From Jatrophihabitans sp. (GTDB taxonomy: Bacteria > Actinomycetota > Actinomycetes > Mycobacteriales > Jatrophihabitantaceae), in the NCBI GenBank assembly GCA_036261575.1, contig DATAKO010000049.1, positions 40-64,039 of the forward strand: DNA of 64,000 nucleotides. The letters are read 5' to 3'. Below, in pieces: positions 13,067 through 29,741 of this stretch. Made by a program: the position numbers and the translations under genes. The stretch's first letter is position 1, and every line of letters begins with the position of its first letter. The notes beneath the pieces were generated by a model, which saw nothing but the letters and a program-made list of their open reading frames with translations, searched no databases and was not told the DNA's origin.

Positions 13067-13840
13067 GTGATGTCGAACGATGGCGTCGCCGACCGCGCTG
13101 CGAAATCCGATCCGCCGCCCACCCTCGAAGCTGCACGTGCAGTTGACCCCGGCACCCCGGAACCATCGGTCGCGCGGGTGCTCAGCCGGCTGGCCCGGCG
13201 GCTGCAGGGCGAGCAGGATCAGGATGCGTTGCTGGGCGCCATCGCCGACGCTGCCGTGTTCAACGTCAGCGGCGCCGAGTGGGCCGGCATCAGCGTGCGA
13301 TCCGACCGGGCCGGCTTGATCACCCGGGCTGCCACCGACCCGGTGGTGCCGGCAATCGATGAGGCACAGCTGACGCTGGGCGAGGGGCCCGGGCTCGACG
13401 CGGCTCGCCGGCGACACACCATCCGCAGCGCCGACCTGGTTGCTGAGCGCCGCTGGCCCCGCTTCGCCCCGCAGGCGCTCGGGCTCGGCGTGCGCTCGCT
13501 GCTGTCGCTGGAGTTGTTCGGCGCGCGCCGCCGCTTCGGCGCGCTGAACGTCTACAGCGGGCAGCCGAACGCCTTCGACGAGCCGGCGGAAGCGGCGGCA
13601 TTGCTGCTGGCAGCGCATGCTGCGCTGGCCATCGGCGCCCAGCAGACCCGCTCGACGCTCAGCCACGCCCTGGATATCCGCGACGTCGTCGGGCAGGCCA
13701 AAGGCATCCTGATGGAGCGCTACCGGATCGGCAACCAGGAGGCCTTCGAGCTGCTGTCGACCTCGTCGCAGAACACCAACCGCCGGCTGGTCGAGGTGGC
13801 CGACGAGCTGATCCGTACCGGGCAACTGCCGCTGCCCTGA
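13067..13840 (+). CDS. GAF and ANTAR domain protein
   Basis: GEGPGLDAA GAF motif, ALDIRDVVGQAKGILMERY...AFELLSTSSQNTNRRLVEVA ANTAR. Confidence 0.92.
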   Translation: MMSNDGVADRAAKSDPPPTLEAARAVDPGTPEPSVARVLSRLARRLQGEQDQDALLGAIADAAVFNVSGAEWAGISVRSDRAGLITRAATDPVVPAIDEAQLTLGEGPGLDAARRRHTIRSADLVAERRWPRFAPQALGLGVRSLLSLELFGARRRFGALNVYSGQPNAFDEPAEAAALLLAAHAALAIGAQQTRSTLSHALDIRDVVGQAKGILMERYRIGNQEAFELLSTSSQNTNRRLVEVADELIRTGQLPLP

Positions 13841-13976
13841 GTCGACCACCTGCCGTGGCCGAGGGGTGCCGGGGAAGGCCGGCGTGGAGGGTGGCCGGTG
13901 GCGCGTCGAACCGGGGCGGTAATTTACCTGCACCGGTCGGATGACAGCGCCCGATCGACGACGTCAAGGAAACAGG

Positions 13977-14294
13977 ATGGAACTTCTCGTTGAGGTCGAC
14001 GACTCCTCGGCCGACGAATCCGTGATCACGCTGACCGGCTCGCTGGACCTGGCCAGTCGTGGACAGCTGATCGAGGCGGCCGGTGCCGCCATCGATGCCG
14101 GCCGCGGCCTGGTGCTGGATCTGGCCGAGCTGACCTTTCTCGACTCCACCGGCATCGGCGCGCTGGTCGAGGCGGCCGGCATGGCAGCCGATGCCGAGCA
14201 GCGATTCCGGCTACGCAACCCGTCAGCCCGGGTCGCGCGGGTGCTGGAGCTGACCGGCATGTCAGAGCAGTGGCAGATCGAAACCACCGGCTGA
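13977..14294 (+). CDS. STAS domain anti-sigma factor antagonist
   Basis: GSLDL, LVLDLAELTFLDSTGI (phospho-Ser motif), RVLELTG. Confidence 0.9.
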   Translation: MELLVEVDDSSADESVITLTGSLDLASRGQLIEAAGAAIDAGRGLVLDLAELTFLDSTGIGALVEAAGMAADAEQRFRLRNPSARVARVLELTGMSEQWQIETTG

Positions 14295-14327
14295 ATCGCG
14301 CGCGAACCGCAGGAAAGGACGCCGGCT

Positions 14328-14714
14328 GTGTCGGACTTCATCACCATCGAGCTGCCCCCGGAACCGTCGGCGGTGATCCTGGCCAGGCAGTTCGTGGCCG
14401 AGCACGCCGGGGACCTGCCGGAGGACCGCAAGTTCGACGCCGAGTTGCTGGTGTCGGAACTGGTCGCGAACGCGGTCCAGCACGGCCAGCCCGACATCCG
14501 GCTGTCGGTCAGCCCGGACCCGCCCGGCATCTGGGTGCAGGTCAGCGATGAGGGCGACTACCTGCCCCAGCTGCCCGACCGGGCACCGGATTCGCGCCAG
14601 CCCAACGGCCGCGGGCTGCGGCTGGTGGATGCGATCGCGGACTCCTGGGGGGTCAAGCCCGCCGACTCGCCACCCGGCAAGACGGTCTGGTTCGAGATCC
14701 GCATCAGCAGCTGA
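14328..14714 (+). CDS. Anti-sigma factor / serine kinase (RsbW-like HATPase)
   Basis: ELLVSELVANAVQHG N-box, VSDEG, GRGLRLVDA, GKTVWFE; GAAAGGA RBS. Confidence 0.9.
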   Translation: MSDFITIELPPEPSAVILARQFVAEHAGDLPEDRKFDAELLVSELVANAVQHGQPDIRLSVSPDPPGIWVQVSDEGDYLPQLPDRAPDSRQPNGRGLRLVDAIADSWGVKPADSPPGKTVWFEIRISS

Positions 14715-14748
14715 CCGGTCCCGACGCGTGGGTAGCGATCGGGCGGGG

Positions 14749-15147
14749 CTAGTTGCCGGCGGTGCAGTCGGCGTCGGCCGGTTCCAGGCAGGGCAGCAAC
14801 GAGCTCAGCCCGGTCAGCTCGAGCAGTGAACGCAGCCGGGGCGAGGCGCCGTCCAGGTAGACCCGCACGCCGCGGGATTCGGCGTAGTTGCTGACCTGAA
14901 CCAGTCCGCCCAGGCCGGAGGAGTCGACGAAACCGACCCTGGTGACGTCGAGGACCAGGCTATCCACCGCGCCGGCCGCCGCCGAGTCGATGCTGGACTC
15001 CGCGGCGCCCCCGGCTGCCACCGGAGCGGCTGTGTCGCTGGCCGTGCCGCGCAGCGCCAGGTGCGCGATCTCTACGGCAACCCGGGCCGAGGTCATGTCC
15101 AGGTTGCCGGACAGCTCAGCACGAACCGTCCGTCCCAAATCCGTCAC
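14749..15147 (-). CDS. STAS domain anti-sigma factor antagonist
   Basis: LSGNLDM, LVLDVTRVGFVDSSGLG, LLELTGL; GTG start after GAAAGGG RBS. Confidence 0.85.
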   Translation of the reverse strand: MTDLGRTVRAELSGNLDMTSARVAVEIAHLALRGTASDTAAPVAAGGAAESSIDSAAAGAVDSLVLDVTRVGFVDSSGLGGLVQVSNYAESRGVRVYLDGASPRLRSLLELTGLSSLLPCLEPADADCTAGN

Positions 15148-15272
15148 GTGGGCAGCCCTTTCCGGCAAGAATCAGCACGGCGTGCTGACGGCGGGCCCTG
15201 CTCTGTTTGCCCGCTGCTGGCCGTGGCGTCGTGGATGCGCCACCGGCTTCCGGGATAGGCCGCCCCTCACCA

Positions 15273-15280
15273 TATGCTCT
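15273..15280 (+). promoter_or_regulatory. TATGCT(CT) -10 element, probable leaderless promoter
   Basis: TAnnnT hexamer 6 nt before ATG 15285; same TATGCTCT at the same spacing upstream of paralog at 20634. Confidence 0.55.
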
Positions 15281-15284
15281 GGTG

Positions 15285-17159
15285 ATGACGTCGATTGACC
15301 CGGTCCGGCTTCCGGCCACCCCAGGCACCGCCGCCAGGCTCGGGATCGACGACCCGGCGCGGCTGCTGGCCGTGCGCGACACGGGCCTGCTCGACACCGA
15401 TCCGGAGCAGATCTTCGACGGCTTGACCGAGCTCGCCGCCTCCGTGTTGAACGCCCCGTACGCACTCGTCACGCTGGTCGACGACCGGCGCTCGTTCTGG
15501 AAGAGCCGGTCCGGCGTCGCCGACCCCGAGCTGATGCAGAGCGCGATCGAGGATTCGTTCTGCCAGTACGTCGTGTCCAGCGGGCAGCCGCTGATCGTCG
15601 GCGATGCCGCCACCGATCCGCTGACCGCCGGCAATCCCGCCATCTCCCAGCTCGGCGTGGCGGCCTGGGCCGGCTTCCCGCTGCGCTCGGCCCAGGGTCA
15701 CACGCTGGGCACCTTCTGCGTGGTGGACACCCGGGTGCGCGAGTGGACCGGCCGCGAGGTGGAGATCCTGCGGGTGCTGGCCGATGCGGCCAACCGGGAG
15801 ATCTCCCTGCGGCAGTCGATGGCCGATGCGGAGCTGGCCAACGCCAAGCTCAGCCTGCTGGTGGAAGCCGGCCAGCTGCTGGCCGAGACCACCGACCTGC
15901 CGGTATCGCTGGAGCGGCTCACCCATCTCGTCGTGCCGCTGCTCGGCGACTGGTGCGTCATCTCGGTCGTGGATGAGGACGGCCATCTTGCCGACCGGGG
16001 CTGGTGGCATCACGACGAGGCCAGCCGCGAGCTGGTGAGCCGATTCGTGGGCAACCGGCTGGTCGGGCTGAACGAGGACGGCGCCACCAACCGGGCGCGG
16101 CTCAGCAAGCGTCCGGTCATCGTCGAATCGGGTGCGCTGGAGGCAGGTCTGGCGGTGCTGCGCTCGCCGGAGGCGCGCGCCGCCTACCAGCAGCTGGCGC
16201 CGGTGTCCTACGCCGTTTTCCCCATGACCGCAGGCAATCGGGTGAACGGCGTGCTGGCCATCCTGCGCGACGGCTCCCGGCCGCCGATGACCCCGGTTGC
16301 CATCGAGGTGGCCAGCGGCGTTGCCCAGCGCGCCGGACTGGCGCTGGAGAACGCCCGGCTGTTCGAGGCGCAGCGGGTCGCCGTCGAACACCTGGCGATG
16401 GCCAACGCGCGCATCGTGGCGACCGCCAAGCATGACCGGATCGTCGCCCGCGCGCTGCAGGACGCCTTGCTGCCCAACCTGATCGACTCCGATGAGCTGG
16501 AGCTCAGCGCGCGCTACCTGACCGCGGACGGCGCGGATCAGGTCGGCGGCGACTTCTACGACGTGATCGTCACCGACGGCGGGGCCACCAGCCTGGTGAT
16601 CGGCGACGTCAGCGGCCACGACATCGGCGCCGCGGCGGAGATGGGCCGGATCACCAACATGCTGCGGGCGATGCTGTGGCAGCAGCCGGAAGGATCGCCG
16701 GCAGAGGTGCTGGCCCAGCTCGACCGGGCGATGCGCGATTTCGACGTGCGCACCATGAGCACCGCCGCACTGGTACACATCGAAGGGCCGAACGGCACCG
16801 GGCACCGGGCCGTCCGCTGGTCGAACGCCGGCCACCTGCCACCGATGCTGGTGCAGTCAGACGGCACGGTGCGGGCGTTGACCGGCCGGCCGGACCGGCC
16901 GCTTGCGGTGGATCCGCGCGGCGCCCGGCACGATCACCAGGACGTCATGCCGGTGGATGCGACCCTGCTGGTCTACACCGATGGCCTGGTCGAGACTCCC
17001 CAGCGGGACGTCGATACCGGGTTGGAGCAGCTTCGCCAGTACCTGCAAGCACATTGCGGGGACCCGTTGGAATCGCTGGTGGACGGCGTGCTGAGCGAGT
17101 TGATCGCTGATCAGCCGACCGACGACGTCGCCGTGGTGGCGCTGCGGCTGCGGCAGTAG
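15285..17159 (+). CDS. GAF-GAF-SpoIIE (PP2C) phosphatase, RsbU/RsbP-like
   Basis: LLDTDPEQIFD...SFCQYVV GAF; VGGDFYD, IGDVSGHD, NAGHLPP, YTDGLVE, DDVAVV PP2C motifs. Confidence 0.92.
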   Translation: MTSIDPVRLPATPGTAARLGIDDPARLLAVRDTGLLDTDPEQIFDGLTELAASVLNAPYALVTLVDDRRSFWKSRSGVADPELMQSAIEDSFCQYVVSSGQPLIVGDAATDPLTAGNPAISQLGVAAWAGFPLRSAQGHTLGTFCVVDTRVREWTGREVEILRVLADAANREISLRQSMADAELANAKLSLLVEAGQLLAETTDLPVSLERLTHLVVPLLGDWCVISVVDEDGHLADRGWWHHDEASRELVSRFVGNRLVGLNEDGATNRARLSKRPVIVESGALEAGLAVLRSPEARAAYQQLAPVSYAVFPMTAGNRVNGVLAILRDGSRPPMTPVAIEVASGVAQRAGLALENARLFEAQRVAVEHLAMANARIVATAKHDRIVARALQDALLPNLIDSDELELSARYLTADGADQVGGDFYDVIVTDGGATSLVIGDVSGHDIGAAAEMGRITNMLRAMLWQQPEGSPAEVLAQLDRAMRDFDVRTMSTAALVHIEGPNGTGHRAVRWSNAGHLPPMLVQSDGTVRALTGRPDRPLAVDPRGARHDHQDVMPVDATLLVYTDGLVETPQRDVDTGLEQLRQYLQAHCGDPLESLVDGVLSELIADQPTDDVAVVALRLRQ

Positions 17160-17232
17160 CCGCAGCGCCCGTCACCTGCGTGACCTGCCTGCTGCAGGTA
17201 TGGGACGGCGGGAATCTGGTTACGTTCGGAGT

Positions 17233-17958
17233 ATGTCCCTCTCCGAACTGATCCTGGTCCGGCACGGCGAGAGCACCGGAAACGTCGCCCGGGAGCGGGC
17301 ATTGGCCGACGGCGCCGAGATGATCTCGATCGACCGGCGCGACGCCGACGTGCCGCTCACCGAGCTGGGCTGCCAGCAGGCGATCGCATTCGGGGCGTGG
17401 CTGGCCGCGCGGCCGACCGACCGCCGGCCCGATGCGGTGTGGTGCTCGACCTACCTGCGGGCCCGGCACACCGCCGAACTCGCGCTGGACCGGGCCGGCC
17501 TGCCGTTGCCGATCACCCTGGACGAGCGGCTGCGTGACCGGGAGCTCGGCATGCTGGACCTGCTCACCGCGACCGGCATCAGCCGGCGATTTCCGGAGGA
17601 AGCCCGCCGGCGAGCGTGGCTGGGCAAGCTCTACTACCGGCCGCCCGGCGGTGAGTCCTGGGCTGACGTGGCACTGCGGCTGCGTTCCCTGCTGCGCGAG
17701 GTCGATCAGCCGGCCGGGCCGCGGCGGGCGCTGCTGGTATGCCACGACGCGGTCATCCTGTTGATGCGCTACATCTGCGAACAGTTCGATGAACAAAGCC
17801 TGTTCGCCACAGCCCGCGACGGCGCCATCGGCAACGCCACCGTCACCGTGCTGCGCCGTACCGATGACGGCTGGCAACCGGAGCTGGTGAATCACGACGA
17901 GCACCTGAGCACCCGGGCCACCGAACACCCAGGAGAGCGCGATGACTTCGGCAGCTGA
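17233..17958 (+). CDS. Histidine phosphatase (phosphoglycerate mutase-like)
   Basis: LVRHGES, LRDRELG, PGGESW, CHD motifs; GGAG RBS before ATG 17233. Confidence 0.9.
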   Translation: MSLSELILVRHGESTGNVARERALADGAEMISIDRRDADVPLTELGCQQAIAFGAWLAARPTDRRPDAVWCSTYLRARHTAELALDRAGLPLPITLDERLRDRELGMLDLLTATGISRRFPEEARRRAWLGKLYYRPPGGESWADVALRLRSLLREVDQPAGPRRALLVCHDAVILLMRYICEQFDEQSLFATARDGAIGNATVTVLRRTDDGWQPELVNHDEHLSTRATEHPGERDDFGS

Positions 17959-18832
17959 CATCGTCACCCCGGCCACGCTGCGCGACTGGCCGCTTCCCGA
18001 GCCCGGCGGCCACAAGAGTTCGCGCGGCCGGGTGCTGGTGATCGGTGGCGCGCGCACCGCACCCGGCGCCGCGCTGCTGGCCGGCCGGGCGGCGTTGCGC
18101 ACCGGCGCCGGGGTGCTCACCATCGCGCTGGCCGAAGCGGTCGCGTCGGCGGTCGGTGCTGCGCTGCCCGAAGCGGGATTGCTGTGGCTGGCCGAGCCGA
18201 TCGGCGCCGCGGCGGCGGAGGTCGTGGGCGACTGTGCCGCCGCGGCGGATGCGATCCTGATCGGACCAGGCCTGGACGATCCGGCTGCCACCGGACAGCT
18301 GCTCCAGCGGCTGCTGCCGGAGCTACCCTCGGACACCCCGGTGTTGCTGGACGCCTACGCGCTGGGCGCGCTGCGCGACCTCGACGCCGCGGTCACGGCC
18401 AGGCTGGCCGGCCGGTTGGTCCTGACCCCGAACCCCGCCGAGGCCGACTTCCTGCTGGCCCGAGACGGCGATGCGCAGAGCCAGGATGCACCCGGTGACC
18501 AGCTGGCCAGGCTGGGGCGGATCGCGGACCGATTCCAGGCGGTGGTCAGCTGCCAGAACCACATCGTGGCACCGACCGGAGACAGCTGGCGGGTGCCCGC
18601 CGGGCATGCCGGCCTGGGCACCTCCGGCAGCGGTGATGTGCTGGCCGGGGCCGTCACCGGTCTGATCGCACGCGGGGCGGACCTCGCGCAGGCCACCACC
18701 TGGGGCACGTTCCTGCACGCCCAGGCGGCCGAGCGGCTGTCCGGCGCCACCGGTCCGCTCGGCTTCCTCGCCGGAGAACTGGTGCAGCCGCTGCCAACCC
18801 TGCTGTCCGAGCTGACCGCCCGGTTGGCATGA
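17942..18832 (+). CDS. nnrD: ADP-dependent NAD(P)H-hydrate dehydratase (YjeF C-terminal only)
   Basis: HKSSRGRVLVIGG, GAALLAGRAALRTGAG, IGPGL, LTPN, GTSGSGDVLAG. Confidence 0.9.
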   Translation: MTSAADIVTPATLRDWPLPEPGGHKSSRGRVLVIGGARTAPGAALLAGRAALRTGAGVLTIALAEAVASAVGAALPEAGLLWLAEPIGAAAAEVVGDCAAAADAILIGPGLDDPAATGQLLQRLLPELPSDTPVLLDAYALGALRDLDAAVTARLAGRLVLTPNPAEADFLLARDGDAQSQDAPGDQLARLGRIADRFQAVVSCQNHIVAPTGDSWRVPAGHAGLGTSGSGDVLAGAVTGLIARGADLAQATTWGTFLHAQAAERLSGATGPLGFLAGELVQPLPTLLSELTARLA

Positions 18833-18983
18833 CCGCCGGCGCTATCTCGCGCTATATGCACGTATGTGCGTTTTGTGCAGGATCGGGTCTGTGACCGCGG
18901 CCGTTGAACCTGATAAGGGCCTTGGTGTGACTTCAGCCGGCGGTGCCGCTGCCGATAGGTTCCCTGCCTAGAAAGGGTCGATT

Positions 18984-20591
18984 GTGTCGTCTGCGCTGCA
19001 AGGCCGGCTGTCACCGCACGAGGTGCCGGTGGCCGGCTCGGCGACCCGGCCAGCAGCAGCGGACCTTCGCGCGAACGAGCTGCTGATCGCTCGCCAGCTG
19101 CGCCGTGCGCTGCGTGCCGGTGCCATCGCGGTGCATTACCAGCCCGTCGTCGAACTGCCGTCCGGTCGGATCGTCGGCGCCGAAGCGCTGGCTCGCTGGA
19201 ACGATGAGCTGCTCGGCACGGTGACCCCGGACGTGTTCATCGGTGTGGCCGAGCGCGCCGGCCTGATCGAGGAACTCGGCGCGCATGTGCTGCGCACCGC
19301 GTGCGCCGAGGCCGCCACCTGGACGCCGGCCGCGCCGGACGTGACCGGCCCGTCGGTGTCGGTGAACGTCTCGGCGCTGCAGCTGCGCACAGACGACATC
19401 GTTTCGACGGTGCAGCACGCGCTGGCCGCGGCCGGGCTGGCCGCGACCCGGCTCTGCCTGGAGATCACCGAGACCGCCGCGGTGCAGGACCTGCCCGGCT
19501 GCACGGAGCGGTTGACCGCGCTGCGGGCGCTCGGTGTCCGGATCGCGCTCGACGACTTCGGCACCGGTCACTCCTCGCTGACCTTGCTGCGCCGGCTGCC
19601 GGTCGACATCGTCAAGATCGATCGCTCGTTCGTCGAGCAGGTCACCGCCGACGCCCGCGACGCGGTGCTGGTGCGGCTGCTCATCGACGCGGCGCACAGT
19701 TTCGGCCTGCGGATCTGTGCCGAGGGTGTGGAGACCCGCGAGCAGGCGCGCCAGCTGGTCGCGATGGGTGCCGACCGCGCGCAGGGGTGGCTGTTCGGCA
19801 GGCCGGAGGCCGGCTCGCCGGCGCTCACAGCCCGGCTGACCGGTCCGGCGCGAGAAGGTGTGGACGACACCGCGGCGCCGAAACTGCTGCTCGGCGGCAA
19901 CGAGGAGCTGGTGGTGGTGACCGGGCCGGACTACCGGATCCGCTACATCTCCGCGGCGCTGCACGCGATGCTCGGCTACCTGCCGAACCAGGCTGTGGGC
20001 GCCTCGGTACTGACCTTCCTGGAGAGCGACTCGCTGGTCGGACCGCACCGACCGGAGCCGGGTGTGCTGGTCGGCAACGGCCGCTACCAGGTCCGTCACC
20101 GCGACGGCAGCCTGCGCTGGTTGCACTCGCGCGGCCAGCAGCTGGCCGACATCGGTGGCCGCGGCGCGGAATTCCTGTTCGTGGTCCGCGACGTGACTGA
20201 CGCGGTACGCGCCGAGCGGGCGCTGGCCGAGAGCGAGGCCAAGTTCCGTGAGGCGTTCGACGGGGCGCCGATCGGCATGGCGATCAACCGGCTGGACGGC
20301 AGCTTCCTGGACGTGAACCAGGCGCTGGCCGAGCTGCTCGGCTACACCACCGAGCAGATGCTGGCGATGACGGTGGCCGACATCACCTGCCCGGAGGATC
20401 AGGCCGGCGATGTCGCGAACACCGAAGCGTTGCTGGCCGGCACGGTCCGGCACGTCTCGGTGGACAAGCGCTATCTCGACGTGCACGGCCGGCAGCTGGC
20501 CGTGCGGGTGCGGGCCTCGATCGTGACCGACGACGGCACCGGCCAGGCCTACATCGTGGCCCACGTGCTGCCCCGCGGCTCCGCGTCCTGA
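18984..20591 (+). CDS. EAL phosphodiesterase domain followed by two PAS/PAC domains
   Basis: YQPVV, AEALARW, EITE, DDFGTGHSS, KIDRSF, AEGVE, QGW, then two PAS repeats; no GGDEF. Confidence 0.85.
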   Translation: MSSALQGRLSPHEVPVAGSATRPAAADLRANELLIARQLRRALRAGAIAVHYQPVVELPSGRIVGAEALARWNDELLGTVTPDVFIGVAERAGLIEELGAHVLRTACAEAATWTPAAPDVTGPSVSVNVSALQLRTDDIVSTVQHALAAAGLAATRLCLEITETAAVQDLPGCTERLTALRALGVRIALDDFGTGHSSLTLLRRLPVDIVKIDRSFVEQVTADARDAVLVRLLIDAAHSFGLRICAEGVETREQARQLVAMGADRAQGWLFGRPEAGSPALTARLTGPAREGVDDTAAPKLLLGGNEELVVVTGPDYRIRYISAALHAMLGYLPNQAVGASVLTFLESDSLVGPHRPEPGVLVGNGRYQVRHRDGSLRWLHSRGQQLADIGGRGAEFLFVVRDVTDAVRAERALAESEAKFREAFDGAPIGMAINRLDGSFLDVNQALAELLGYTTEQMLAMTVADITCPEDQAGDVANTEALLAGTVRHVSVDKRYLDVHGRQLAVRVRASIVTDDGTGQAYIVAHVLPRGSAS

Positions 20592-20621
20592 GCGGCGCCT
20601 GATGGCCGGGCCGGCCATGTC

Positions 20622-20629
20622 TATGCTCT
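20622..20629 (+). promoter_or_regulatory. TATGCT(CT) -10 element, probable leaderless promoter
   Basis: 6 nt before ATG 20634; identical to the element at 15273. Confidence 0.55.
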
Positions 20630-20633
20630 CGCC

Positions 20634-22403
20634 ATGACAGCCCTCGAGCCCGGCGGCGCCGACCCGTCCCGCCGCGCAGTGTTCGAAGGGCTGGCAGCGC
20701 TCACCCGCAGCCGGCTCGCGACGAGCCACGCGGTGATCAGCTCCGATGCGCTGGAGCGGCCGTGCTGGGGCGGCGCCGATGATCGCGCGGTACCGGCCGA
20801 GCTGACGGCCGCGCTGGCCGAGCTGGTGACCGGGCCGGTCGCCCGAACCGGCCGGCCGGTCCAGCTGGCCGGACCGGCGAACGCGGCCCCCTTCGCCGCA
20901 GCGGCAGCCGAGCCGGTCTTCGACGCAGACGGCCAGCTGGTCGGCATTCTGAGCGTGCTCGATCAGCAGCCGCGGAACTGGACGCCGGGCGAGCTGGCAA
21001 CGCTGCGTGGCCTGGCCGACCAGGTGGGCGCCGAACTGGGGCTGGACCAGACGCTGTCCCAGCTGCGGCTGGCGACCGCGAAGCTCGGCTTGCTGGCCGA
21101 GGCCAACCACCGGCTTGCCGACACCCTCAATGTCGAGAAGACCGTTGGCGAGCTGGCCCGGCTGGTGGTGCCGGTGCTGGGCGATTGGTGCATGGTGTCC
21201 GCGGTCGACGACGACGGCCGGCTGCAGGACCTGGGCTGGTGGCACGGCACCGAGGACGGCCGGAGCCTGGTGCACGAGTTCATCTCCGATCGGCTCGCCG
21301 TGCTCTCCCAGGACAGCCCGACCTACCGGGTGTTTCGCGAGGGCAAGCCGTTCGTGCTGCCCGCGGGCGCCCTGGCGGCCGGACTGCGGACGCTGTCCAC
21401 CCCACGCTCGCAGGCTGTCTGGCAGCGCTTGGCGCCGGAGTCCTACGCAGTGTTCCCGATGGTGGCCGGTCCCAGGATCAACGGTGTGCTGTGCATCGTG
21501 CGTGGCTCCGACCGGCCGCCGATGTCCGACTTCGCCCTCGAGGTGGCCGAGGGGATCGCCAGCCGCGCCGGCCTGGCGCTGGAGAACGCGCGGCTGTTCC
21601 AGTCCCAGCGGCTGCTCAATGACAAGCTGTCCCAGGCCAATTCTCGGCTGCTGGCCAGCTCCCGGCACGACCGGGTCGTGTCGCGAGCGCTGCAGGATGC
21701 GATGCTGCCCAGCGTGTCGGCAGGCACCGGTGACCTGCAGGTGTGCGCCAGGTACCGCACCGCGGACGGCGAGGACCAGGTCGGCGGCGACTTCTACGAT
21801 GCGATCAACGCCCGCAGCGGCGGCACCACCGTGGTGATCGGTGACGTCAGCGGGCACGACATCGCTGCCGCCGCGGTGATGGGCCGGATCACCCCCGTGC
21901 TGCGCTCCTTTGTGTGGGACCGGCCGGACGAAAGCCCGGCGGAGCTGCTGGAACGGCTGGACCGGGCGATGACCGCGCTGGACGTGGCCAAGCTGACCAC
22001 CACCGCGCTGTTCCATCTGGACCAGCCGGTCGGCGGTGACTACCTGGCCGGCCGGCGCAGCGAGTGGTCGAACGCGGGGCACCTGCCGCCGCTGCTGATC
22101 ACCGCTGACGGCGCCAGCTTCCTCGGCCAGCAACCCGATCCGCCGCTGGGCATCACTGCGCGCGCCGCGCGACGCGACTTCCAGCTGCTGCTGCCGGCGG
22201 GCTCGACGCTGCTGCTCTACACCGACGGGCTGGTGGAGAGCCGGCAGCGCGACCTGGACGCGGGCCTGCAGCAGCTGCGCGCGTTCGTCAGCGAACAGGC
22301 CGCCCTGCCGCTGGCCGAGCTGCTGGATGCGACGCTGCAGGAGATGGTGCCCGGCGAGTTCGGCGACGATGTCGCGTTGGTGGGGGTCCGGCTGCGCGGC
22401 TGA
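20634..22403 (+). CDS. GAF-SpoIIE (PP2C) phosphatase, paralog of 15285..17159
   Basis: VGGDFYD, IGDVSGHD, NAGHLPP, YTDGLVE, DDVALV; shortened N-terminal GAF. Confidence 0.92.
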   Translation: MTALEPGGADPSRRAVFEGLAALTRSRLATSHAVISSDALERPCWGGADDRAVPAELTAALAELVTGPVARTGRPVQLAGPANAAPFAAAAAEPVFDADGQLVGILSVLDQQPRNWTPGELATLRGLADQVGAELGLDQTLSQLRLATAKLGLLAEANHRLADTLNVEKTVGELARLVVPVLGDWCMVSAVDDDGRLQDLGWWHGTEDGRSLVHEFISDRLAVLSQDSPTYRVFREGKPFVLPAGALAAGLRTLSTPRSQAVWQRLAPESYAVFPMVAGPRINGVLCIVRGSDRPPMSDFALEVAEGIASRAGLALENARLFQSQRLLNDKLSQANSRLLASSRHDRVVSRALQDAMLPSVSAGTGDLQVCARYRTADGEDQVGGDFYDAINARSGGTTVVIGDVSGHDIAAAAVMGRITPVLRSFVWDRPDESPAELLERLDRAMTALDVAKLTTTALFHLDQPVGGDYLAGRRSEWSNAGHLPPLLITADGASFLGQQPDPPLGITARAARRDFQLLLPAGSTLLLYTDGLVESRQRDLDAGLQQLRAFVSEQAALPLAELLDATLQEMVPGEFGDDVALVGVRLRG

Positions 22404-23896: not shown

Positions 23897-24847
23897 GTGG
23901 TGAGTCTCGAACCGGCCGATGTCGCCCGGCTGGGCCTGGGGCTCGCCGCGATCGGCCGGCCGGCCTACATCACCGCCGGCCGCGGGCACGATCTCGGGCC
24001 GCCGGCGCAGCGCACCGTGGCCAGCATGCGCAGCCGGACGCACGCCTTGCTGGACTCGGCCTGGTCCGCCGGCATCCGCTACGTCGACGTTGCGCGCTCC
24101 TACGGCAGGGCTGAGGAGTTCCTCGGCGAGTGGCTGGCGGCGCATCCGGGTCGCCGCGCCCAGCTGCGGCTGGGCTCCAAATGGGGTTACGAGTACGTGG
24201 GGAACTGGCGTGCCGACGCCCCGCTGCACGAGCGCAAGCAGCACTCCCGGGCGATGTTGGACAAACAGTGGCCGCAGACCCTGCAGGCGCTGGGCGGACC
24301 GCCCGACTGGTATCTGATCCACTCGGTGACCCCGGACAGCCCGGCGCTCACGGACCGGGACCTGCTGGCCGCCCTGTCCGAACTTGCTGCCACCGGCATC
24401 CGGATCGGGCTGTCGACCAGCGGCCCGGCACAGGCGGCGGTGATCGAACGGGCGCTGGCGTTGCGTTCGGTGCCGTTCTCGGTGGTCCAGTCGACCTGGA
24501 ACCTGCTGGAGCAGTCGGCGACCCAGGCGCTGCTGCGCGCGCATGCTGCTGGCTGGCAGGTCATCGTCAAAGAGGTGTTCGCCAACGGCCGGTTGGCCGG
24601 CACCGCGGCACCTCCGGCGATCCGGCAGGTGGCCGAGCAGCAGGGCCGGACGGTGGAGTCGGTCGCGCTGGGCACCGTGCTGGCCCAGCCCTGGGTCGAC
24701 CTGGCCCTCACCGGTGCGGTCACCGGCGATCAGTTGGCGGCCAACCTGGCCGCCGACGTCGCGGCGCCGCTGCCGGATCTGCTCCACGGGCTGGCGGTGG
24801 CGGCGCCGGAGTACTGGCATGCACGCGGCGAGCTGAGCTGGGCCTGA
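23897..24847 (+). CDS. Aldo/keto reductase
   Basis: LGLGLAAIG, YVDVARSYGRAEE, GSKWG, YLIHS, STWNLLE. Confidence 0.88.
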   Translation: MVSLEPADVARLGLGLAAIGRPAYITAGRGHDLGPPAQRTVASMRSRTHALLDSAWSAGIRYVDVARSYGRAEEFLGEWLAAHPGRRAQLRLGSKWGYEYVGNWRADAPLHERKQHSRAMLDKQWPQTLQALGGPPDWYLIHSVTPDSPALTDRDLLAALSELAATGIRIGLSTSGPAQAAVIERALALRSVPFSVVQSTWNLLEQSATQALLRAHAAGWQVIVKEVFANGRLAGTAAPPAIRQVAEQQGRTVESVALGTVLAQPWVDLALTGAVTGDQLAANLAADVAAPLPDLLHGLAVAAPEYWHARGELSWA

Positions 24848-24864
24848 CCGGGCAGGCGTCGGCG

Positions 24865-25905
24865 ATGCGGATCGTGGCAGCCCCGGACAAGTTTCGTGGC
24901 ACCGCCGATGCGCGGCAGATCGCCGCTGCGGTGGCACGGGCGGCGGATTCGGCGGGTGCGCACTGCGTCTCGGTGCCGCTGTCCGATGGTGGCGAGGGCA
25001 TGCTGCAGGCCTTCGGTGGCGGCAACCGCATGGACACGGTGACCGGACCGCTCGGCACGCCGGTGCAGGCACCGTGGCGGCTGCAGCCGGACGGGATCGC
25101 GATCATCGAGAGCGCGCTGGCCTGCGGCCTCGCGCTGGCCGGTGGCGCGCAGGCCAACGACCCGGAGGCGGCCGGCACCCGCGGTGTCGGTGAGCTGATC
25201 GTGGCCGCGGTGCGCGCCGGCGCCGGGCAGGTGGTGATCGGCCTGGGCGGCTCGGCGAGCACGGACGGCGGCGCGGGTGCCGCGGCGGTGCTGCGGGCGG
25301 CCGGCGTGCGCGGACGCGGGCTCACCGGTGTGGCGGTGCGCGGCAGCTGCGTGCGGCTGGTCGTGTGCTGTGACGTCACCACCCGGTTCTCCGACGCGGC
25401 CAGGGTCTTCGGACCGCAGAAGGGCGCGGGCCCGGGGCAGGTCGCACGGCTGAGCGCGCGGCTGGCCGCTGAGCGGGCGCGGGTGCTCGCCAGCACCGGC
25501 CTGGACCTGGACCGGGTGCCCGGCAGCGGTGCCGCCGGTGGCCTGGCGGGCGGCCTCGCTGCGCTCGGAGCGGAGCTGGTGCCTGGCTTCGACGCGGTCG
25601 CTGCGGCCAGCTCGCTGGATGCAGCGCTGGCCGGGGCGCACCTGGTGGTGACAGGGGAGGGCAAGCTGGACCGGACGTCGCTAGCGGGCAAGGTCGTGGG
25701 TGGGGTGCTCGAGCACGCCGGCCGGGTCGGGGTGCCGGTGCTCGTACTGGCAGGCCAGGTCGAGCCGGATCTCGTGCTGGAACCCGAGGCGACGGTGCTC
25801 GACCTGACGGTCCGCTACGGCGCCGAACGGGCCTGGCGTGACACCACCGGTTGCGTGACCGATGCGGTGGGCCGCCACCTGCGCCAGCTGGCCGCCCGCG
25901 GCTGA
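24865..25905 (+). CDS. glxK: Glycerate kinase
   Basis: MRIVAAPDKFRG, PLSDGGEG, IGLGGSASTDGG, FGPQKGA, GAAGGL, TGEGKLD. Confidence 0.9.
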   Translation: MRIVAAPDKFRGTADARQIAAAVARAADSAGAHCVSVPLSDGGEGMLQAFGGGNRMDTVTGPLGTPVQAPWRLQPDGIAIIESALACGLALAGGAQANDPEAAGTRGVGELIVAAVRAGAGQVVIGLGGSASTDGGAGAAAVLRAAGVRGRGLTGVAVRGSCVRLVVCCDVTTRFSDAARVFGPQKGAGPGQVARLSARLAAERARVLASTGLDLDRVPGSGAAGGLAGGLAALGAELVPGFDAVAAASSLDAALAGAHLVVTGEGKLDRTSLAGKVVGGVLEHAGRVGVPVLVLAGQVEPDLVLEPEATVLDLTVRYGAERAWRDTTGCVTDAVGRHLRQLAARG

Positions 25906-25929
25906 TCGCTGCTCGGGCATACTCGATGC

Positions 25930-26454
25930 ATGTCCGACATCGCGCGGCCGGCTCAGCCCGCGAGCACGCCGGCCAAGAAGGCTGCCGCGAAGAAGGCTGC
26001 GGCGAAGAAGGCACCCGTCAAGAAGGCTGCGGCGAAGAAGGCCCCCGTCAAGAAGGCTGCCGCGAAGAAGGTCCCCGCGAAGAAGGCCCTCGCCAAGAAG
26101 GCTGCGGCGAAGAAGGCTGCCGCGAAGAAGGCTCCCGCGAAGAAGGCTCCCGCGAAGAAGGCCCCCGCCAAGAAGGCTGCCGCGAAGAAGGCGCCCCCGG
26201 CCAAGTCGGCTCCCCGGCGTCCCGCGGCGACTTCGGCCGGCCGGCCGGGCGTCTCGTCGGTACCCGAGCTCGAGCCGACCCCGGCCGACCCGCTGGAGCT
26301 GCTCGGGCTGACTGCGGGCTACACCCGCAGCCAGCTGCGTGCGGCCTGGCGGGCCTTCGCGGTGACGCATCATCCCGACCGCGGCGGCCAGGCCTCGCTC
26401 TTCGTGCGCGGCGAGCGCGCCTACGCCGTCCTGCTCGCACAGCTCGATCGGTGA
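25930..26454 (+). CDS. Histone H1-like Lys/Ala repeat protein with C-terminal J-domain
   Basis: 15 tandem xxKKA-type pentamers, then DPLELLGL...[18 protein letters not shown] (HPD motif); GC3-rich codons; CATACT 6 nt upstream; GTGA overlap with crtI. Confidence 0.8.
25969..26193 (+). repeat. 15 x 15-bp in-frame tandem repeat ([15 protein letters not shown])
   Basis: Repeated (G/C)CxGCGAAGAAGGCx units read directly from sequence. Confidence 0.95.
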
Positions 26455-27953
26455 ACGTGATGGGCCTGCGCCGGGTGCCCGGCCGCACCGACCGGGTGGT
26501 AGTGATCGGGGCCGGCCTGGGCGGGCTGTCGGCCACGTTGCGGCTTCTCGGCGCGGGACGCGAGGTGACGGTGGTGGAGCAGGCCGATCGGCCGGGTGGC
26601 CGCGCCGGCCTGCTGCAGCGCGACGGCTACCGTTTCGATACCGGCCCGACGGTGCTCACCATGCCCGAGCTGATCGACGATGCCCTTGCCTGCGTGGGGG
26701 AACGGCTGTCGGACCGGGTCAGGCTGCTGCCGCTGCAGCCGGCCTACCGGGCCCGGTTCGCCGATCGATCGAGCATCGACGTGCACGCCGACCCGGAACG
26801 GATGGCGACGGAGATCGAGCGGGTGGCGGGGCCGGCGGAGGCGGCAGGCTATCGGGAGCTGGTGAGCTTTCTCCGAAGGCTGTACCGGCTGGAGTTGGCC
26901 AACTTCATCGACCGCAATCTGGACTCCCCCGGGCAGCTGGTGAACAGCGCCGGGCTGCAATTGCTGGCCATCGGCGGCCTGCGCCGGCTGGCACCCAAGG
27001 TCGGGCAGTACCTCAAGGACGACCGGCTCCGGCGCGTCTTCTCCTTCCAGGCCATGTATGCCGGCCTCGCGCCGCAGGACGCGCTCGCGATCTACGCGGT
27101 GATCTCCTACATGGACACGGTGGCCGGCGTCTACTTCCCCGAAGGTGGCATGCATGCGGTGCCGCAGGCGATGGCTGCCGCAGCCGCCCAGCACGGTGCT
27201 CGTTTTCGCTACCGCACCCGCATCGAACGGATCGAGGTCGGCCAGGGCCGGGCGCGGGCCGTGCACACCGACCAGGGCGAGCGGATCGAGGCAGATGCCG
27301 TCGTGGTCAACGCCGATCTGCCCACGGCGTACCAGGACCTGCTGCCGCCCGAGTACCGGCCCGCACGGCTGCGGCGACTGCGCTACTCGCCGTCCTGCGC
27401 TCTGCTGCATGTCGGCTCGACCGTTGCGGTGCCGGAGCTGGCCCATCACAGCATCTTCTTCGGCCAGGCCTGGCGCGAGACGTTCCGCGAGATCATCGAC
27501 CAGGGCCGGCTGATGAGCGATCCCTCGTTCCTGGTGAGCAATCCCAGCCAGAGCGATCCAGGCCTGGCACCTGCCGGCGGCCACAGTTACTACATCCTGT
27601 TCCCCACGCCGAATGCCCGGGCCGGCCTGGACTGGCCGAGCCTTGCTCCGCGCTACCGCGAGGAGATGCTGATGAACGTGCAGGAACGGACCGGTGTCGA
27701 CCTGGCCGCCGGCATCGACACCGAGCTGCTGGTGACGCCCGCGGACTGGCAGGCGCAGGGGCTGGCTGCTGGCGCCCCGTTCGCGGCCGCGCACACCTTC
27801 GGCCAGTCGGGACCGTTTCGGATGCCGACCCTGGACCGGCGGATCGAGAACCTGGTGTTCTGCGGCTCCAACACCCAGCCCGGCGTCGGTATCCCGATGG
27901 TGCTCATCTCGGGGCGGCTCGCCGCCGAACGCATCTGCGGCCCGGTGCGGTGA
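26451..27953 (+). CDS. crtI: Phytoene desaturase
   Basis: [33 protein letters not shown]-type C-terminal [15 protein letters not shown]. Confidence 0.95.
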
Positions 27954-28969
27954 CCGGCCGGCTGGCCCGGGCCGAGCTGGCCGCCGCGGGAATCGAGCAA
28001 GCGCAGCTGGTTGAGGGCTATTGCCGGGCGCGGCGGCTCAATGCCGAGCACGGCAAGACCTACTACCTGGCCGCGCTGCTGCTGCCGGCGGCCAAGCGTC
28101 CCTACGTGCACGCGCTGTACGGCTTCGCCCGGTATGCCGACGACATCGTCGATCGGCTCGATCCGGCCAGCACCGCCGACACCCGGGCTGCGGAATTCGA
28201 CCGCTGGTGTGCCGGCTTTCGCGACGATCTGGCCGCCGGCCGCTCGAGTGACCCGCTGATCGCCGCGCTGATCGACACCAGCACCCGCTGGCAGTTGCCG
28301 CACCAGCTGTTCGGTGACTTCCTGCGGTCGATGGCGATGGACCTGACGGTGACCGAGTACCGCAGCTTCACCGAGCTGGCCGAGTACATGTGGGGTTCGG
28401 CAGCGGTGATCGGCCTGCAGATGCTGCCCATTCTCGGCTACCGGGCCGGCGAGCGGGAACGCGCGGAGCATTGCGCAGCCCAGCTGGGCCTGGCGTTCCA
28501 GCTCACCAACTTCCTGCGCGACGTGGGCGAGGACCTGGACCGTGGCCGGGTCTACCTGCCGCAGGAGTCGCTGCAGTCGTGCGGGGTCGATCTGGGCCAG
28601 CTGCAGCACGCTCGCCGGACCGGCCGGGTGGACCTGCCGATCCGCCGGTTGCTGGCGTTGGAGATCGAGCGGGCGCGCAGTCTCTACCGCGCGGCCGAGC
28701 CGGGCATCGACCTGCTCGAACCGCCCTCGCGCGAGTGCATGCGCACCGCGTTCGTGCTGTACGGCGAGATCCTGGACCGGATCGAGCAGACCGATTACCA
28801 GATCTTCGCCGGCCGCATCGCGGTTGCGCTGCCCCGCCGAGTGCAGGTGGCGGCCGGTGGACTGGCCCGATCGCGCTGGTCGCGGATGACCAGCCAGGTC
28901 AGGGGCCTTGCTCGATCCGATCGGCGATCAGCCGGTACCAGTCCTCGCCGGGGCGGCCGGTCTCGATGA
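27950..28969 (+). CDS. crtB: Phytoene synthase
   Basis: HGKTYYLA, YGFARYADDIVD, QLTNFLRDVGEDLDRGRVYLP. Confidence 0.93.
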   Translation: MTGRLARAELAAAGIEQAQLVEGYCRARRLNAEHGKTYYLAALLLPAAKRPYVHALYGFARYADDIVDRLDPASTADTRAAEFDRWCAGFRDDLAAGRSSDPLIAALIDTSTRWQLPHQLFGDFLRSMAMDLTVTEYRSFTELAEYMWGSAAVIGLQMLPILGYRAGERERAEHCAAQLGLAFQLTNFLRDVGEDLDRGRVYLPQESLQSCGVDLGQLQHARRTGRVDLPIRRLLALEIERARSLYRAAEPGIDLLEPPSRECMRTAFVLYGEILDRIEQTDYQIFAGRIAVALPRRVQVAAGGLARSRWSRMTSQVRGLARSDRRSAGTSPRRGGRSR

Positions 28970-29741
28970 ACCACGTGGCGCCCGCCTCGGCGTAGTCGGC
29001 CAGCAGCTCTGTCCGCCCGTCCGGCTCGGTCAGCTCGCTCCAGACCACCAGGTCGTAGCCGGCGAGCGGGCGCTGCTGCGCGAGATAGGCCCGCACCTCG
29101 GCCAGATCGTCCACCGAGGGACGCACCACCCGGCCTGCCGCGAACCGGATCGGCACCGCACCGTCCCAGCGCGCTGCCCGGGCGAGCGGGCGCCGGGCCG
29201 GCAGCACGCCGCCGACCCAGACCGGGATGCTGCCGCGGACCGGGCGCGGGGTGAAGCGCATCGGTGCCAGCTGGTAGTACGGTCCCTGGTGGTGGAACCG
29301 CTCGCCGCTGAAGAACTGCGCAAGCAGCTGCAGCCCCTCGTCGAGCAGCTCGGCGCGGCCTCGATCGTCTGACCGCTCCCCGAAATGTGCGAAGTCCCCG
29401 GCCGCCGGTGAGCCCAGCCCGACACCGAGCACCAGCCGGCCGTTGCTGAGGCGGTCGATGCTCACGCACTGCCGGGCCAGCGTCCAGGGGCGGCGGCGGG
29501 ACAGCGGCGTCACCATCGGCCCGAGGGTGATCCGCTCGGTGCGATCGGCCAGCACCGCCAGCACGGTCCACGGGTCGAGGATGTCCGGGCCGTTCCCGTC
29601 GTTGGCGAACAGCATGTGATCCCAGATGAAGAAGCCGTCGAAACCGGCCGCCTCCGCCTGCACGCCGAGCGCGACCAGCGCGGCCGGGTCAGTGCCGAAA
29701 CACGGGACCGCGAGCGCCCGTCGCGGTGCCGCGGCGGTCAC
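28899..29741 (-). CDS. LLM-class flavin/F420-dependent oxidoreductase
   Basis: GFDGFFIWDH, DPW, RITLGPMVTPL, GRLVLGVGLG, IPVWVGG. Confidence 0.88.
   Translation of the reverse strand: MTAAAPRRALAVPCFGTDPAALVALGVQAEAAGFDGFFIWDHMLFANDGNGPDILDPWTVLAVLADRTERITLGPMVTPLSRRRPWTLARQCVSIDRLSNGRLVLGVGLGSPAAGDFAHFGERSDDRGRAELLDEGLQLLAQFFSGERFHHQGPYYQLAPMRFTPRPVRGSIPVWVGGVLPARRPLARAARWDGAVPIRFAAGRVVRPSVDDLAEVRAYLAQQRPLAGYDLVVWSELTEPDGRTELLADYAEAGATWFIETGRPGEDWYRLIADRIEQGP

Follow-up and report, generated by a model that had tools for sequence, protein, structure and literature searches.

The stretch of DNA analyzed here (64,000 nucleotides of Jatrophihabitans sp., contig DATAKO010000049.1 of assembly GCA_036261575.1; hereafter the window, with a G+C content of 71%) carries a gene in which a lysine-rich repeat tail is fused to a short C-terminal J-domain. 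This gene, referred to below as the tail-J gene, precedes a crtI-crtB pair. Our data show that it belongs to a conserved, unnamed, and uncharacterized family whose members probably act as small co-chaperones of DnaK. The gene, its parts, and its neighbors are:

25930-26454, plus strand: tail-J gene, encoding 174 amino acids (aa), isoelectric point (pI) 11.3, net charge +34
25930-25968, plus strand: N-terminus (residues 1-13) with the family-conserved MSD(I/L)x(R/K) start, here MSDIAR
25969-26193, plus strand: 15 pentads of the xxKKA type (residues 14-88), predicted to be disordered, net charge +30
26194-26283, plus strand: Pro/Ser/Arg-rich linker (residues 89-118) ending in the family motif (A)LPAPPxDP, with a low predicted local distance difference test score (pLDDT)
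26284-26451, plus strand: predicted three-helix J-domain (residues 119-174), with HPD (residues 148-150) at nucleotides 26371-26379
26451-27953, plus strand: crtI, phytoene-desaturase family (TIGR02734, Pfam Amino_oxidase)
27950-28969, plus strand: crtB-like gene of the phytoene/squalene synthase family (PF00494), overlapping crtI by 4 nt
25906-25929, plus strand: 24-nt gap between the glycerate-kinase stop codon and the tail-J ATG, with CATACT at -12 to -7 from the ATG and without a Shine-Dalgarno sequence
24865-25905, plus strand: glycerate kinase, the upstream neighbor (PF02595, 248 bits, residues 248-547 of its open reading frame [ORF])
23897-24847: aldo-keto reductase, adjoining the glycerate kinase on its 5' side

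Translation of the ORF at 25930-26454 gives the 174-aa protein, with a Pro/Ser linker followed by an HPD-bearing J-domain, that had been described in a first-pass annotation made from the DNA letters. The GTGA overlap with crtI noted there is likewise present: the tail-J stop codon TGA (26452-26454) overlaps the GTG at 26451 of the crtI frame, so that the gene is packed head-to-tail with crtI-crtB. A GTG at 26457 and an ATG at 26460 are further in-frame start candidates for crtI. Since the next genes 3' of crtB lie convergently on the minus strand and the genes are joined by 4-nt overlaps, the shortest transcription unit comprises the tail-J gene, crtI, and crtB. A sigma-70/terminator consensus scan of positions 25500-29400 returned no sites and did not pick up the candidate -10 element CATACT, which the first-pass annotation had described as leaderless-type. 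The mechanically called glycerate-kinase ORF (24130-25905) is over-extended at its 5' end. The tail-J protein is identical to database protein P0001, which forms a singleton cluster at 90% identity; its sequence contains no hydrophobic stretch, and a search of the window found no second copy.

The tail-J ORF is a real gene, as indicated by its codon-position GC content, by homologs with the same architecture and N-terminal motif, and by a metagenome unitig. The GC content at codon positions 1, 2, and 3 is 0.82, 0.53, and 0.89 in the J part and 0.61, 0.56, and 0.87 in the repeat part, compared with 0.74, 0.50, and 0.88 in crtI and 0.73, 0.52, and 0.87 in crtB. A single Logan unitig present in two independent soil metagenomes spans positions 26058-27500, so that nine of the repeats lie in one piece with the linker, the J-domain, and crtI, and a third metagenome provides a 151-nt contig over the J/crtI junction with one mismatch. 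In addition, the N-terminal MSDIAR resembles that of the homologs P0009 (MSDIVRR), P0159 and P0172 (MSDLVRR), and P0166 (MSDLAKR); this shared motif, together with the unitig span, argues against a chimeric join through the repeat. The join at 25997-26058 and the exact number of repeats rest on short unitigs running through sequence common to many KKA genes; the copy number could thus be off by a few units, and since the array is in-frame, the reading would be unchanged. One might still suppose that the ORF arose by chance in GC-rich sequence, that it merely extends crtI at the 5' end, or that it is a product of chimeric assembly through the repeat. The frame of crtI does stay open from 25851 onward (a 700-aa ORF), and the k-mers of the repeat are shared with many other metagenome genes, with a depth over the repeat (25924-26259) of 120-340 versus ~6-10 in the flanks (10-40x; runs X1-X4). 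However, the codon-position signature agrees with the J frame, the architecture and N-terminal motif recur in 22 homologous loci, one unitig links nine repeats to the J-domain and crtI, and AlphaFold2 (AF2) is highly confident on the J part, all of which makes such an artifact extremely improbable. DNA of the window was matched only in soil and rhizosphere DNA metagenomes and in no RNA run. In these soil and rhizosphere metagenomes (n = 4), KKA-repeat coding DNA from many different genes was abundant, with many partial contigs.

Both homology and the predicted fold support the assignment of the C-terminal 55 residues as a J-domain. AF2 modeling with the family alignment placed residues 120-174 at a pLDDT of 93-98 and predicted a short helix I (121-124), followed by an antiparallel hairpin of helices II (133-147) and III (155-173). 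All 50 of the PDB matches listed by Foldseek were J-domains, with a root-mean-square deviation (rmsd) of 0.7-2 Å in the compact alignments. The best of them was Tim14 (2guz_A; rmsd 1.1 Å over 52 columns, target-normalized template modeling score of 0.68, 29% identity), and the DnaK-bound J-domain of DnaJ (5nro_B) was matched at 1.9 Å over 53 columns. A single-sequence search of the PDB yielded 40 weak matches, 37 of them to J-domain proteins. The family profile gave 48 PDB matches at E <= 0.01, and those checked were J-domain proteins, among them NDUEG6 (1e-8), DNAJA1 (1e-7), E. coli DnaJ (6.5e-7), and CbpA (2kqx and 3ucs, about 4e-3). An exhaustive HMMER search of a library of 1.84 billion representatives revealed 533 matches at E <= 1e-3, and HPD was present in 149 of the best 150; the C-terminal 86 aa gave no match in a word-indexed protein search. 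Several homologs carry a precomputed match to the Pfam DnaJ model (PF00226).

The HPD motif (H148-P149-D150) lies in the loop between helices II and III and is invariant in 25 of 25 family sequences, as are P121, L125, W140, R141, A144, H147, G152, G153, F158, R160, G161, A164, and L168. In our own alignment with DnaJ, W140 and R141 of helix II and F158 of helix III correspond to Y25, K26, and F47, positions that contact DnaK in the DnaJ-DnaK complex. Pfam and NCBIfam matched nothing beyond low complexity of the HC2 type and the J part; no G/F region (rich in Gly and Phe), zinc finger, or C-terminal client-binding domain (CTD) was found, which places the protein among the type III J-domain proteins, although its J-domain is truncated and atypical for them. 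The full-length family ORFs recovered by the pattern scan given below all end 23-28 residues after the HPD. The short J form is also common outside the family: 68 of the best 150 library matches end within 32 residues after the HPD, and short-J matches with unrelated N-termini include P0016, P0019, P0023, P0025, P0035, P0039, P0062, and others. Judged from these sequences, the three-helix C-terminal J module looks like a recurrent, shuffled building block.

The part that precedes the J-domain is predicted to be disordered (residues 1-119, pLDDT 50-58). Tandem Repeats Finder located a repeat with a 15-nt period at 25975-26196 (14.8 copies, 80% matches, no indels, score 276), and a repeat search found 13 in-register copies at a spacing of exactly 15 nt. 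In the protein, residues 14-88 form a perfect register of PAKKA (x5), AAKKA (x6), PVKKA (x2), AAKKV (x1), and LAKKA (x1), with 30 Lys, no acidic residue, and a pI of 11.5; the differences among the copies are mostly synonymous or affect Ala/Pro/Val positions. What the first-pass annotation had read as 15 exact pentamer repeats is thus exact in its xxKK register over all 15 pentads, whereas the residues vary among five pentad types. The likeness to histone H1 that it had claimed for the tail is in keeping with the score of Pfam HC2 (PF07382), 65.4 bits against a cutoff of 40. The NCBIfam models NF038053 (62.4 bits, cutoff 80) and NF038052 (33 bits, cutoff 135) remained below threshold, and these HC2 and histone-H1-like matches are compositional. 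Sequence composition supports the classification of the tail as a low-complexity region of the histone-H1/PAKKA type.

We compared the fusion with public genomes and protein sets. Besides the window, 22 distinct loci contain the tail-plus-short-J architecture, mostly in environmental Mycolicibacterium/Mycobacterium but also in Acidothermaceae and uncultured Actinomycetota. Ten representatives of 50%-identity clusters have a KKA-type tail, a linker ending in (A)LPAPPxDP, and a short J-domain. A profile search of a set of 5.8 billion proteins revealed 28 strong members (E 1e-25 to 1e-29); Mycolicibacterium madagascariense, Mycobacterium hackensackense, Mycolicibacterium canariasense, and Acidothermaceae bacterium B102 are among the named carriers. 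Scanning species representatives with a degenerate DNA pattern (R-x-A-W-R-x2-A-x2-HHPD-x-GG) uncovered 28 genomic stretches, 17 of which are tail-plus-J genes; the carriers include M. hodleri, M. yunnanensis, M. numidiamassiliense, several Mycolicibacterium, and uncultured Actinomycetota. At 42-62% identity to the family, the window protein diverges from the other members, and the recurrence of the architecture in 22 other loci at this level of identity supports selection on the tail-plus-short-J combination.

The first-pass annotation knew of no such fusion among characterized proteins, and in our literature search we likewise found no paper on it; the fusion is, in view of the 22 further loci, no one-off. 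Database labels are generic ("hypothetical protein" at NCBI; "DnaJ-class molecular chaperone" or "curved DNA-binding protein CbpA" at JGI). Public gene calls are often stubs of 63-68 aa whose called start is an internal Met or Leu (MGLPQLP...) and which miss the upstream in-frame KKA tail, as in P0006 (compare P0007), P0153, P0156, P0161, P0163, P0164, P0167, P0168, P0173, and locus L097 (4578-5192). When genomes were scanned with the whole protein, KKA patterns dominated the outcome, and the only matches were two from Streptomyces, both to the tail alone (query residues 11-105). A scan of metagenome contigs found no close relative of the window protein, and the same scan with the family alignment found, among the matches listed, generic J-domains only. 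A phage origin was considered and rejected: in PHROGs, families of unknown function were matched weakly and in a J-type manner only, and a tblastn search of 50,697 phage records gave 24 generic J-domain matches below 60% identity, with no actinophage among the organisms listed.

Further analysis of the family loci revealed that a same-strand transporter gene directly flanks the tail-J gene in 16 of 22, often with a 4-nt overlap or gap. Grouped by transporter type, these neighbors are:

immediately downstream, ArsB/CitMHS-type permease: L086, L165, L183, L184, L196, L197
downstream, major facilitator superfamily (MFS) protein "A" of ~422 aa: L097, L166, L188, L198 (4-nt overlap in L166, L167)
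upstream, MFS "A" of ~422 aa: L163, L165, L192
after a 127-aa ORF, a second MFS protein, "B": L084, L170
downstream, amino-acid permease: L192
downstream, DUF7159 with a MacB/LolD-like ATP-binding cassette (ABC) ATPase: L181, L187

A transporter is the most conserved type of neighbor in the family, and the association looks real. The DUF7159-ABC ATPase fusion is ~740 aa long (L181, 3543-5762; L187, 1771-4005, minus strand). Its DUF7159 part has faint actin-like/FGGY_C similarity and may adopt an actin/Hsp70-like fold; a PDB sequence search with the DUF7159 domain from L181 gave no match.

Other contexts of the family point to stress regulons. In a Mycolicibacterium metagenome-assembled genome (MAG; L085, 3763-5201), an hsp20 gene on the minus strand is followed by a divergent gene for an HspR-like MerR regulator (NF047375, 93.7 bits, cutoff 105) and then by the tail-J gene, an arrangement that looks like a small heat-shock unit; the intergenic region holds a half-site resembling the HspR-associated inverted repeat (CTTGAGC). 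PAS and RsbW-like genes precede the tail-J gene in L086, L165, L183, and L197, and a PAS gene does so in L196. Genes for Asp23, CsbD, extracytoplasmic function sigma factors, and ANTAR proteins lie nearby in several family loci. SigF-type motifs (GGTTTC-N16-GGGTA(T), GTTT-N17-GGGTA; background 0.02 per 350 nt) occur upstream of three family genes of the MFS "A" subgroup, at ~4631-4657 in L097 and ~129 nt upstream of the first KK codon in L188 and L198. For comparison, the M. smegmatis crt locus depends on SigF, and a GTTT-N16-GGGTA sequence lies 97 bp upstream of its crtI (PMC4694148). A pattern search (GTTT-N14-19-GGGTA) found no such promoter upstream of the tail-J gene of the window; a degenerate GGTT-N16-GGGCC at 25849-25873 was not counted as one. 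Genes for partner-switching and second-messenger signaling are dense at 13067-22403 of the window, 4-13 kb upstream of the tail-J gene:

13067-13840: GAF-ANTAR protein
14328-14714: RsbW-like kinase
14749-15168, minus strand: STAS protein
15207-17159 and 20634-22403: two GAF-SpoIIE phosphatases
18984-20591: EAL-PAS protein

We propose that the tail-J protein is probably a minimal type III (class C) J-domain co-chaperone whose polycationic tail tethers the activation of DnaK to a polyanionic surface. The N-terminal ~118 residues, that is, the disordered polycation and the linker, would serve as an electrostatic tether to such a surface in the cell, while the C-terminal 55-residue J-domain would bind DnaK in its ATP-loaded state and set off hydrolysis of the ATP, causing DnaK to clamp clients near the site of tail binding. 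Because a G/F region, a zinc finger, and CTDs are missing, the protein would localize DnaK rather than deliver a substrate to it. In the window genome, the gene would be cotranscribed, and probably translationally coupled, with crtI-crtB; elsewhere in the family, it would share operons with polytopic transporters. The anatomy, with no client domain, a disordered tail of charge +30, and an unbroken HPD hairpin, suits a tethered activator of DnaK. Of the two parts of this proposal, stimulation of DnaK appears likely, and a tethering role for the tail is rather probable.

Several observations weigh against this proposal. The window protein scores 21.3 bits with Pfam DnaJ, below the gathering threshold of 27.8 (E = 3e-4, profile positions 4-53 of 63), and it ends one residue after helix III, so that helix IV is absent. 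The first-pass annotation had spoken of a compact J-domain; the J-fold is upheld by the model, but the domain is a truncated one. The window protein also departs from the family at two near-invariant positions (D154 to Q and T157 to L). No dnaK was identified among the scanned ORFs of the window (about 9.9-37.9 kb). The transporter loci represent about four to five syntenic groups of related mycobacteria, counted with no phylogenetic correction. Finally, a Lys/Ala/Pro tail binds any polyanion in vitro, and its composition therefore cannot name the target.

The same features could be read as those of a nucleoid-associated, histone-like protein, in which the tail compacts or bridges DNA in the manner of Hlp and HupB and a degenerate J-fold serves dimerization or a partner other than DnaK. 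HC2 and the histone-H1-like models are the strongest family matches, and the missing helix IV and the subthreshold DnaJ score would suit a J-like end that has lost its original role. The DUF7159-ABC ATPase fusion, with its faint actin-like similarity, could be an alternative partner in the two loci where it lies downstream. DNA binding by PAKKA repeats has been shown experimentally for Ku and Hlp of M. smegmatis (PMC3553676) and for the MLDS protein of Rhodococcus (PMC5504291), and HBHA is reported as nucleoid-associated (PMC10665949). Nevertheless, the HPD and the flanking residues of helices II and III are invariant in the family, which is the pattern expected if contact with Hsp70 is under selection, and the predicted fold superposes on the J-domain of DnaJ as bound to DnaK. 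Pseudo-J domains such as that of Tim16 lack the HPD. We therefore consider a histone-like protein that bypasses DnaK unlikely.

Regarding the surface to which the co-chaperone would be tethered, gene context is the only family-specific evidence. It favors the inner, anionic side of the cytoplasmic membrane, which is the place of action of transporters as well as of CrtI and CrtB, and we regard this target as possible but doubtful. The experimental precedent of PAKKA tails favors DNA by analogy, and the nucleoid is likewise a tentative candidate, whereas RNA/ribosomes or polyphosphate are improbable ones. The first-pass annotation had offered the nucleoid, anionic membranes, and polyphosphate side by side; the transporter neighbors now lend the membrane at least as much support as the nucleoid. 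A ribosome- or RNA-tethered variant would make the protein a bacterial analog of zuotin, with the tail binding rRNA or mRNA and DnaK being activated on nascent chains of the next gene. Coupled translation is suggested by how often the downstream gene is overlapped by 4 nt or lies 4 nt away, the polycation is not sequence-specific, and zuotin is a ribosome-associated J-protein (cited in PMC3486835). However, no zuotin similarity exists outside the J-domain, and the data do not separate RNA from DNA or lipid; we deem a zuotin-like role very unlikely.

The position of the gene at the head of crtI-crtB suggests a further explanation, raised in the first-pass annotation as assistance in carotenoid enzyme assembly, in which the J-protein is a dedicated factor that recruits DnaK to fold CrtI and CrtB or to load them onto the membrane, its place in the operon reflecting this role. 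CrtI and CrtB are membrane-associated enzymes, and the three genes of the window are chained by 4-nt overlaps. The window crtI is well above the cutoff of TIGR02734 (529.5 versus 238.1 bits) and below that of HpnE (64.8 versus 283). The crtB-like gene matches PF00494 with 231.8 bits and falls under all NCBIfam equivalog cutoffs, with HpnD the best (185 versus 279) and cyanobacterial CrtB at 174 versus 550. No crtE or cyclase gene adjoins the pair, and the pathway may be of the C40 or the C30 type.

A comparison of loci from both directions revealed that the link of the tail-J gene to crtI is not conserved. Among the 22 other family loci, none has crtI or crtB adjoining the family gene, which is seen in the window only. 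Conversely, no J-like ORF was found upstream at any of 80 loci that contain crtI relatives (56-81% identity): a tblastn search with the J part, run at E <= 10, yielded nothing credible there, and no match with HPD in a J-like context. The window crtI is 74-81% identical to crtI of Jatrophihabitans/Jatrophihabitantaceae MAGs, and inspection of the three closest loci (L003-L005, 74-81%) showed no J-like gene upstream; the upstream gene was nitronate-monooxygenase-like, acyltransferase-like, or not recognizable, as labeled from the translations. The closest of these crtI genes (81%; L003, CAZZZW010000438.1) lies on a 3.3-kb contig binned with an "Oscillatoria nigro-viridis" MAG; the contig is probably bin contamination, its sequence being actinobacterial in character.

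A looser connection to carotenoid genes is seen again in mycobacteria. The KKA-J gene of Mycolicibacterium sp. P1-18 (L184, 570-7999) is followed in turn by genes for ArsB, a response regulator, a histidine kinase, an ANTAR protein, a polyprenyl synthase, and a crtI-like product, so that a crtE-crtI cluster begins ~4.8 kb downstream of the tail-J gene. A metagenomic mycobacterial contig (L165, 6001-12366) has the same order up to the polyprenyl synthase. This recurrence of a polyprenyl-synthase/crtI cluster about 5 kb downstream lends the idea of a carotenoid-assembly factor some support; against it stand the empty comparisons of both locus sets and the transporters as the recurring neighbors of the family gene. 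Since crtI is absent beside other family loci, the carotenoid-assembly function is weak for the family, and we consider a dedicated factor of this kind improbable. The tight crtI-crtB link is specific to the window lineage, where a local adaptation is possible, whereas a dedicated carotenoid role as the function of the family is unlikely.

The site of Hsp70 action and its clients are set by J-domain proteins, of which few bacterial examples are known besides DnaJ, CbpA, and DjlA. If the proposed role as a tethered DnaK co-chaperone is correct, the tail-J protein would be a very small and easily tested case of localization achieved through charge only, with no folded or transmembrane domain in that role, and of a J-domain pared to three helices in use. 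It would extend the recruitment of PAKKA tails by actinobacterial proteins (HU, Ku, HBHA, and MLDS) to the chaperone system and would provide a way into the question of how mycobacterial DnaK gets to the membrane or nucleoid. More tentatively, environmental mycobacteria and their relatives might possess a conserved set of Hsp70 activators that are encoded within operons for transporters and membrane enzymes and are tethered by their tails, without transmembrane segments, at the membrane/nucleoid interface, where they would concentrate DnaK and aid the biogenesis or quality control of cotranslated membrane proteins; the class would then be an electrostatic functional analog of DjlA, Sec63, and Pam18. 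For genome annotation, the family matters as one that is now labeled hypothetical and is often shortened by gene callers to a 63-68 aa stub; it has little bearing on carotenoid biology as such. Collectively, the components are familiar and the crtI-crtB association is not general, while the structure-function idea is attractive and cheap to test.

Among known systems, the mitochondrial import motor component Tim14/Pam18, which acts at a membrane translocon, provides the best structural match and has a similarly compact J-domain, but it is eukaryotic, anchored by a transmembrane segment, and paired with Tim16; at 29% identity, the likeness is a resemblance of fold and not family membership. The PAKKA-tail proteins (Hlp/HupB, M. 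smegmatis Ku, HBHA, Rhodococcus MLDS, and Rv3852) share the Lys/Ala/Pro repeat tail, which in their case is attached to HU, Ku, coiled-coil, or lipid-droplet-targeting domains and in none to a J-domain; the Rv3852 family model gave the tail-J protein 37.4 bits against a cutoff of 100. By its tail, the tail-J protein joins this group of actinobacterial PAKKA-tail proteins. Like the tail-J protein, Shewanella AtcJ is a small stand-alone J-protein, in its case dedicated to one stress and carrying a short non-chaperone extension, a 21-aa C-terminal one after the J-domain (PMC6715715). In the tail-J protein, by contrast, the J-domain is C-terminal, truncated, and placed after a polycationic disordered region of ~118 aa.

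The closest parallels are found in E. coli. DjlA combines an N-terminal localizer with a C-terminal HPD J-domain and has no client-binding domain, an organization that the tail-J protein shares, and the operon partners of the tail-J family are membrane proteins, in keeping with the membrane setting of DjlA. DjlA has an N-terminal transmembrane anchor and a four-helix J-domain. The tail-J protein differs in having no hydrophobic segment, a soluble disordered tether of charge +30, and no helix IV. Type III J-proteins share with DnaJ nothing but the J-domain and are believed to provide Hsp70 with a location or a specific client, and DjlA is thought to localize DnaK to the E. coli membrane (PMC3486835). 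CbpA, the curved-DNA-binding and nucleoid-associated protein, resembles the tail-J protein as a J-protein with a DNA-binding type of part, DNA binding by the tail being a prediction. CbpA is of type II, with an N-terminal J-domain and C-terminal substrate-binding domains (PMC3486835, PMC4063869), whereas the tail-J protein has the opposite domain order, a low-complexity tail, and no CTDs (no DnaJ_C match). The tail-J protein would work most like DjlA and CbpA and is a member of neither.

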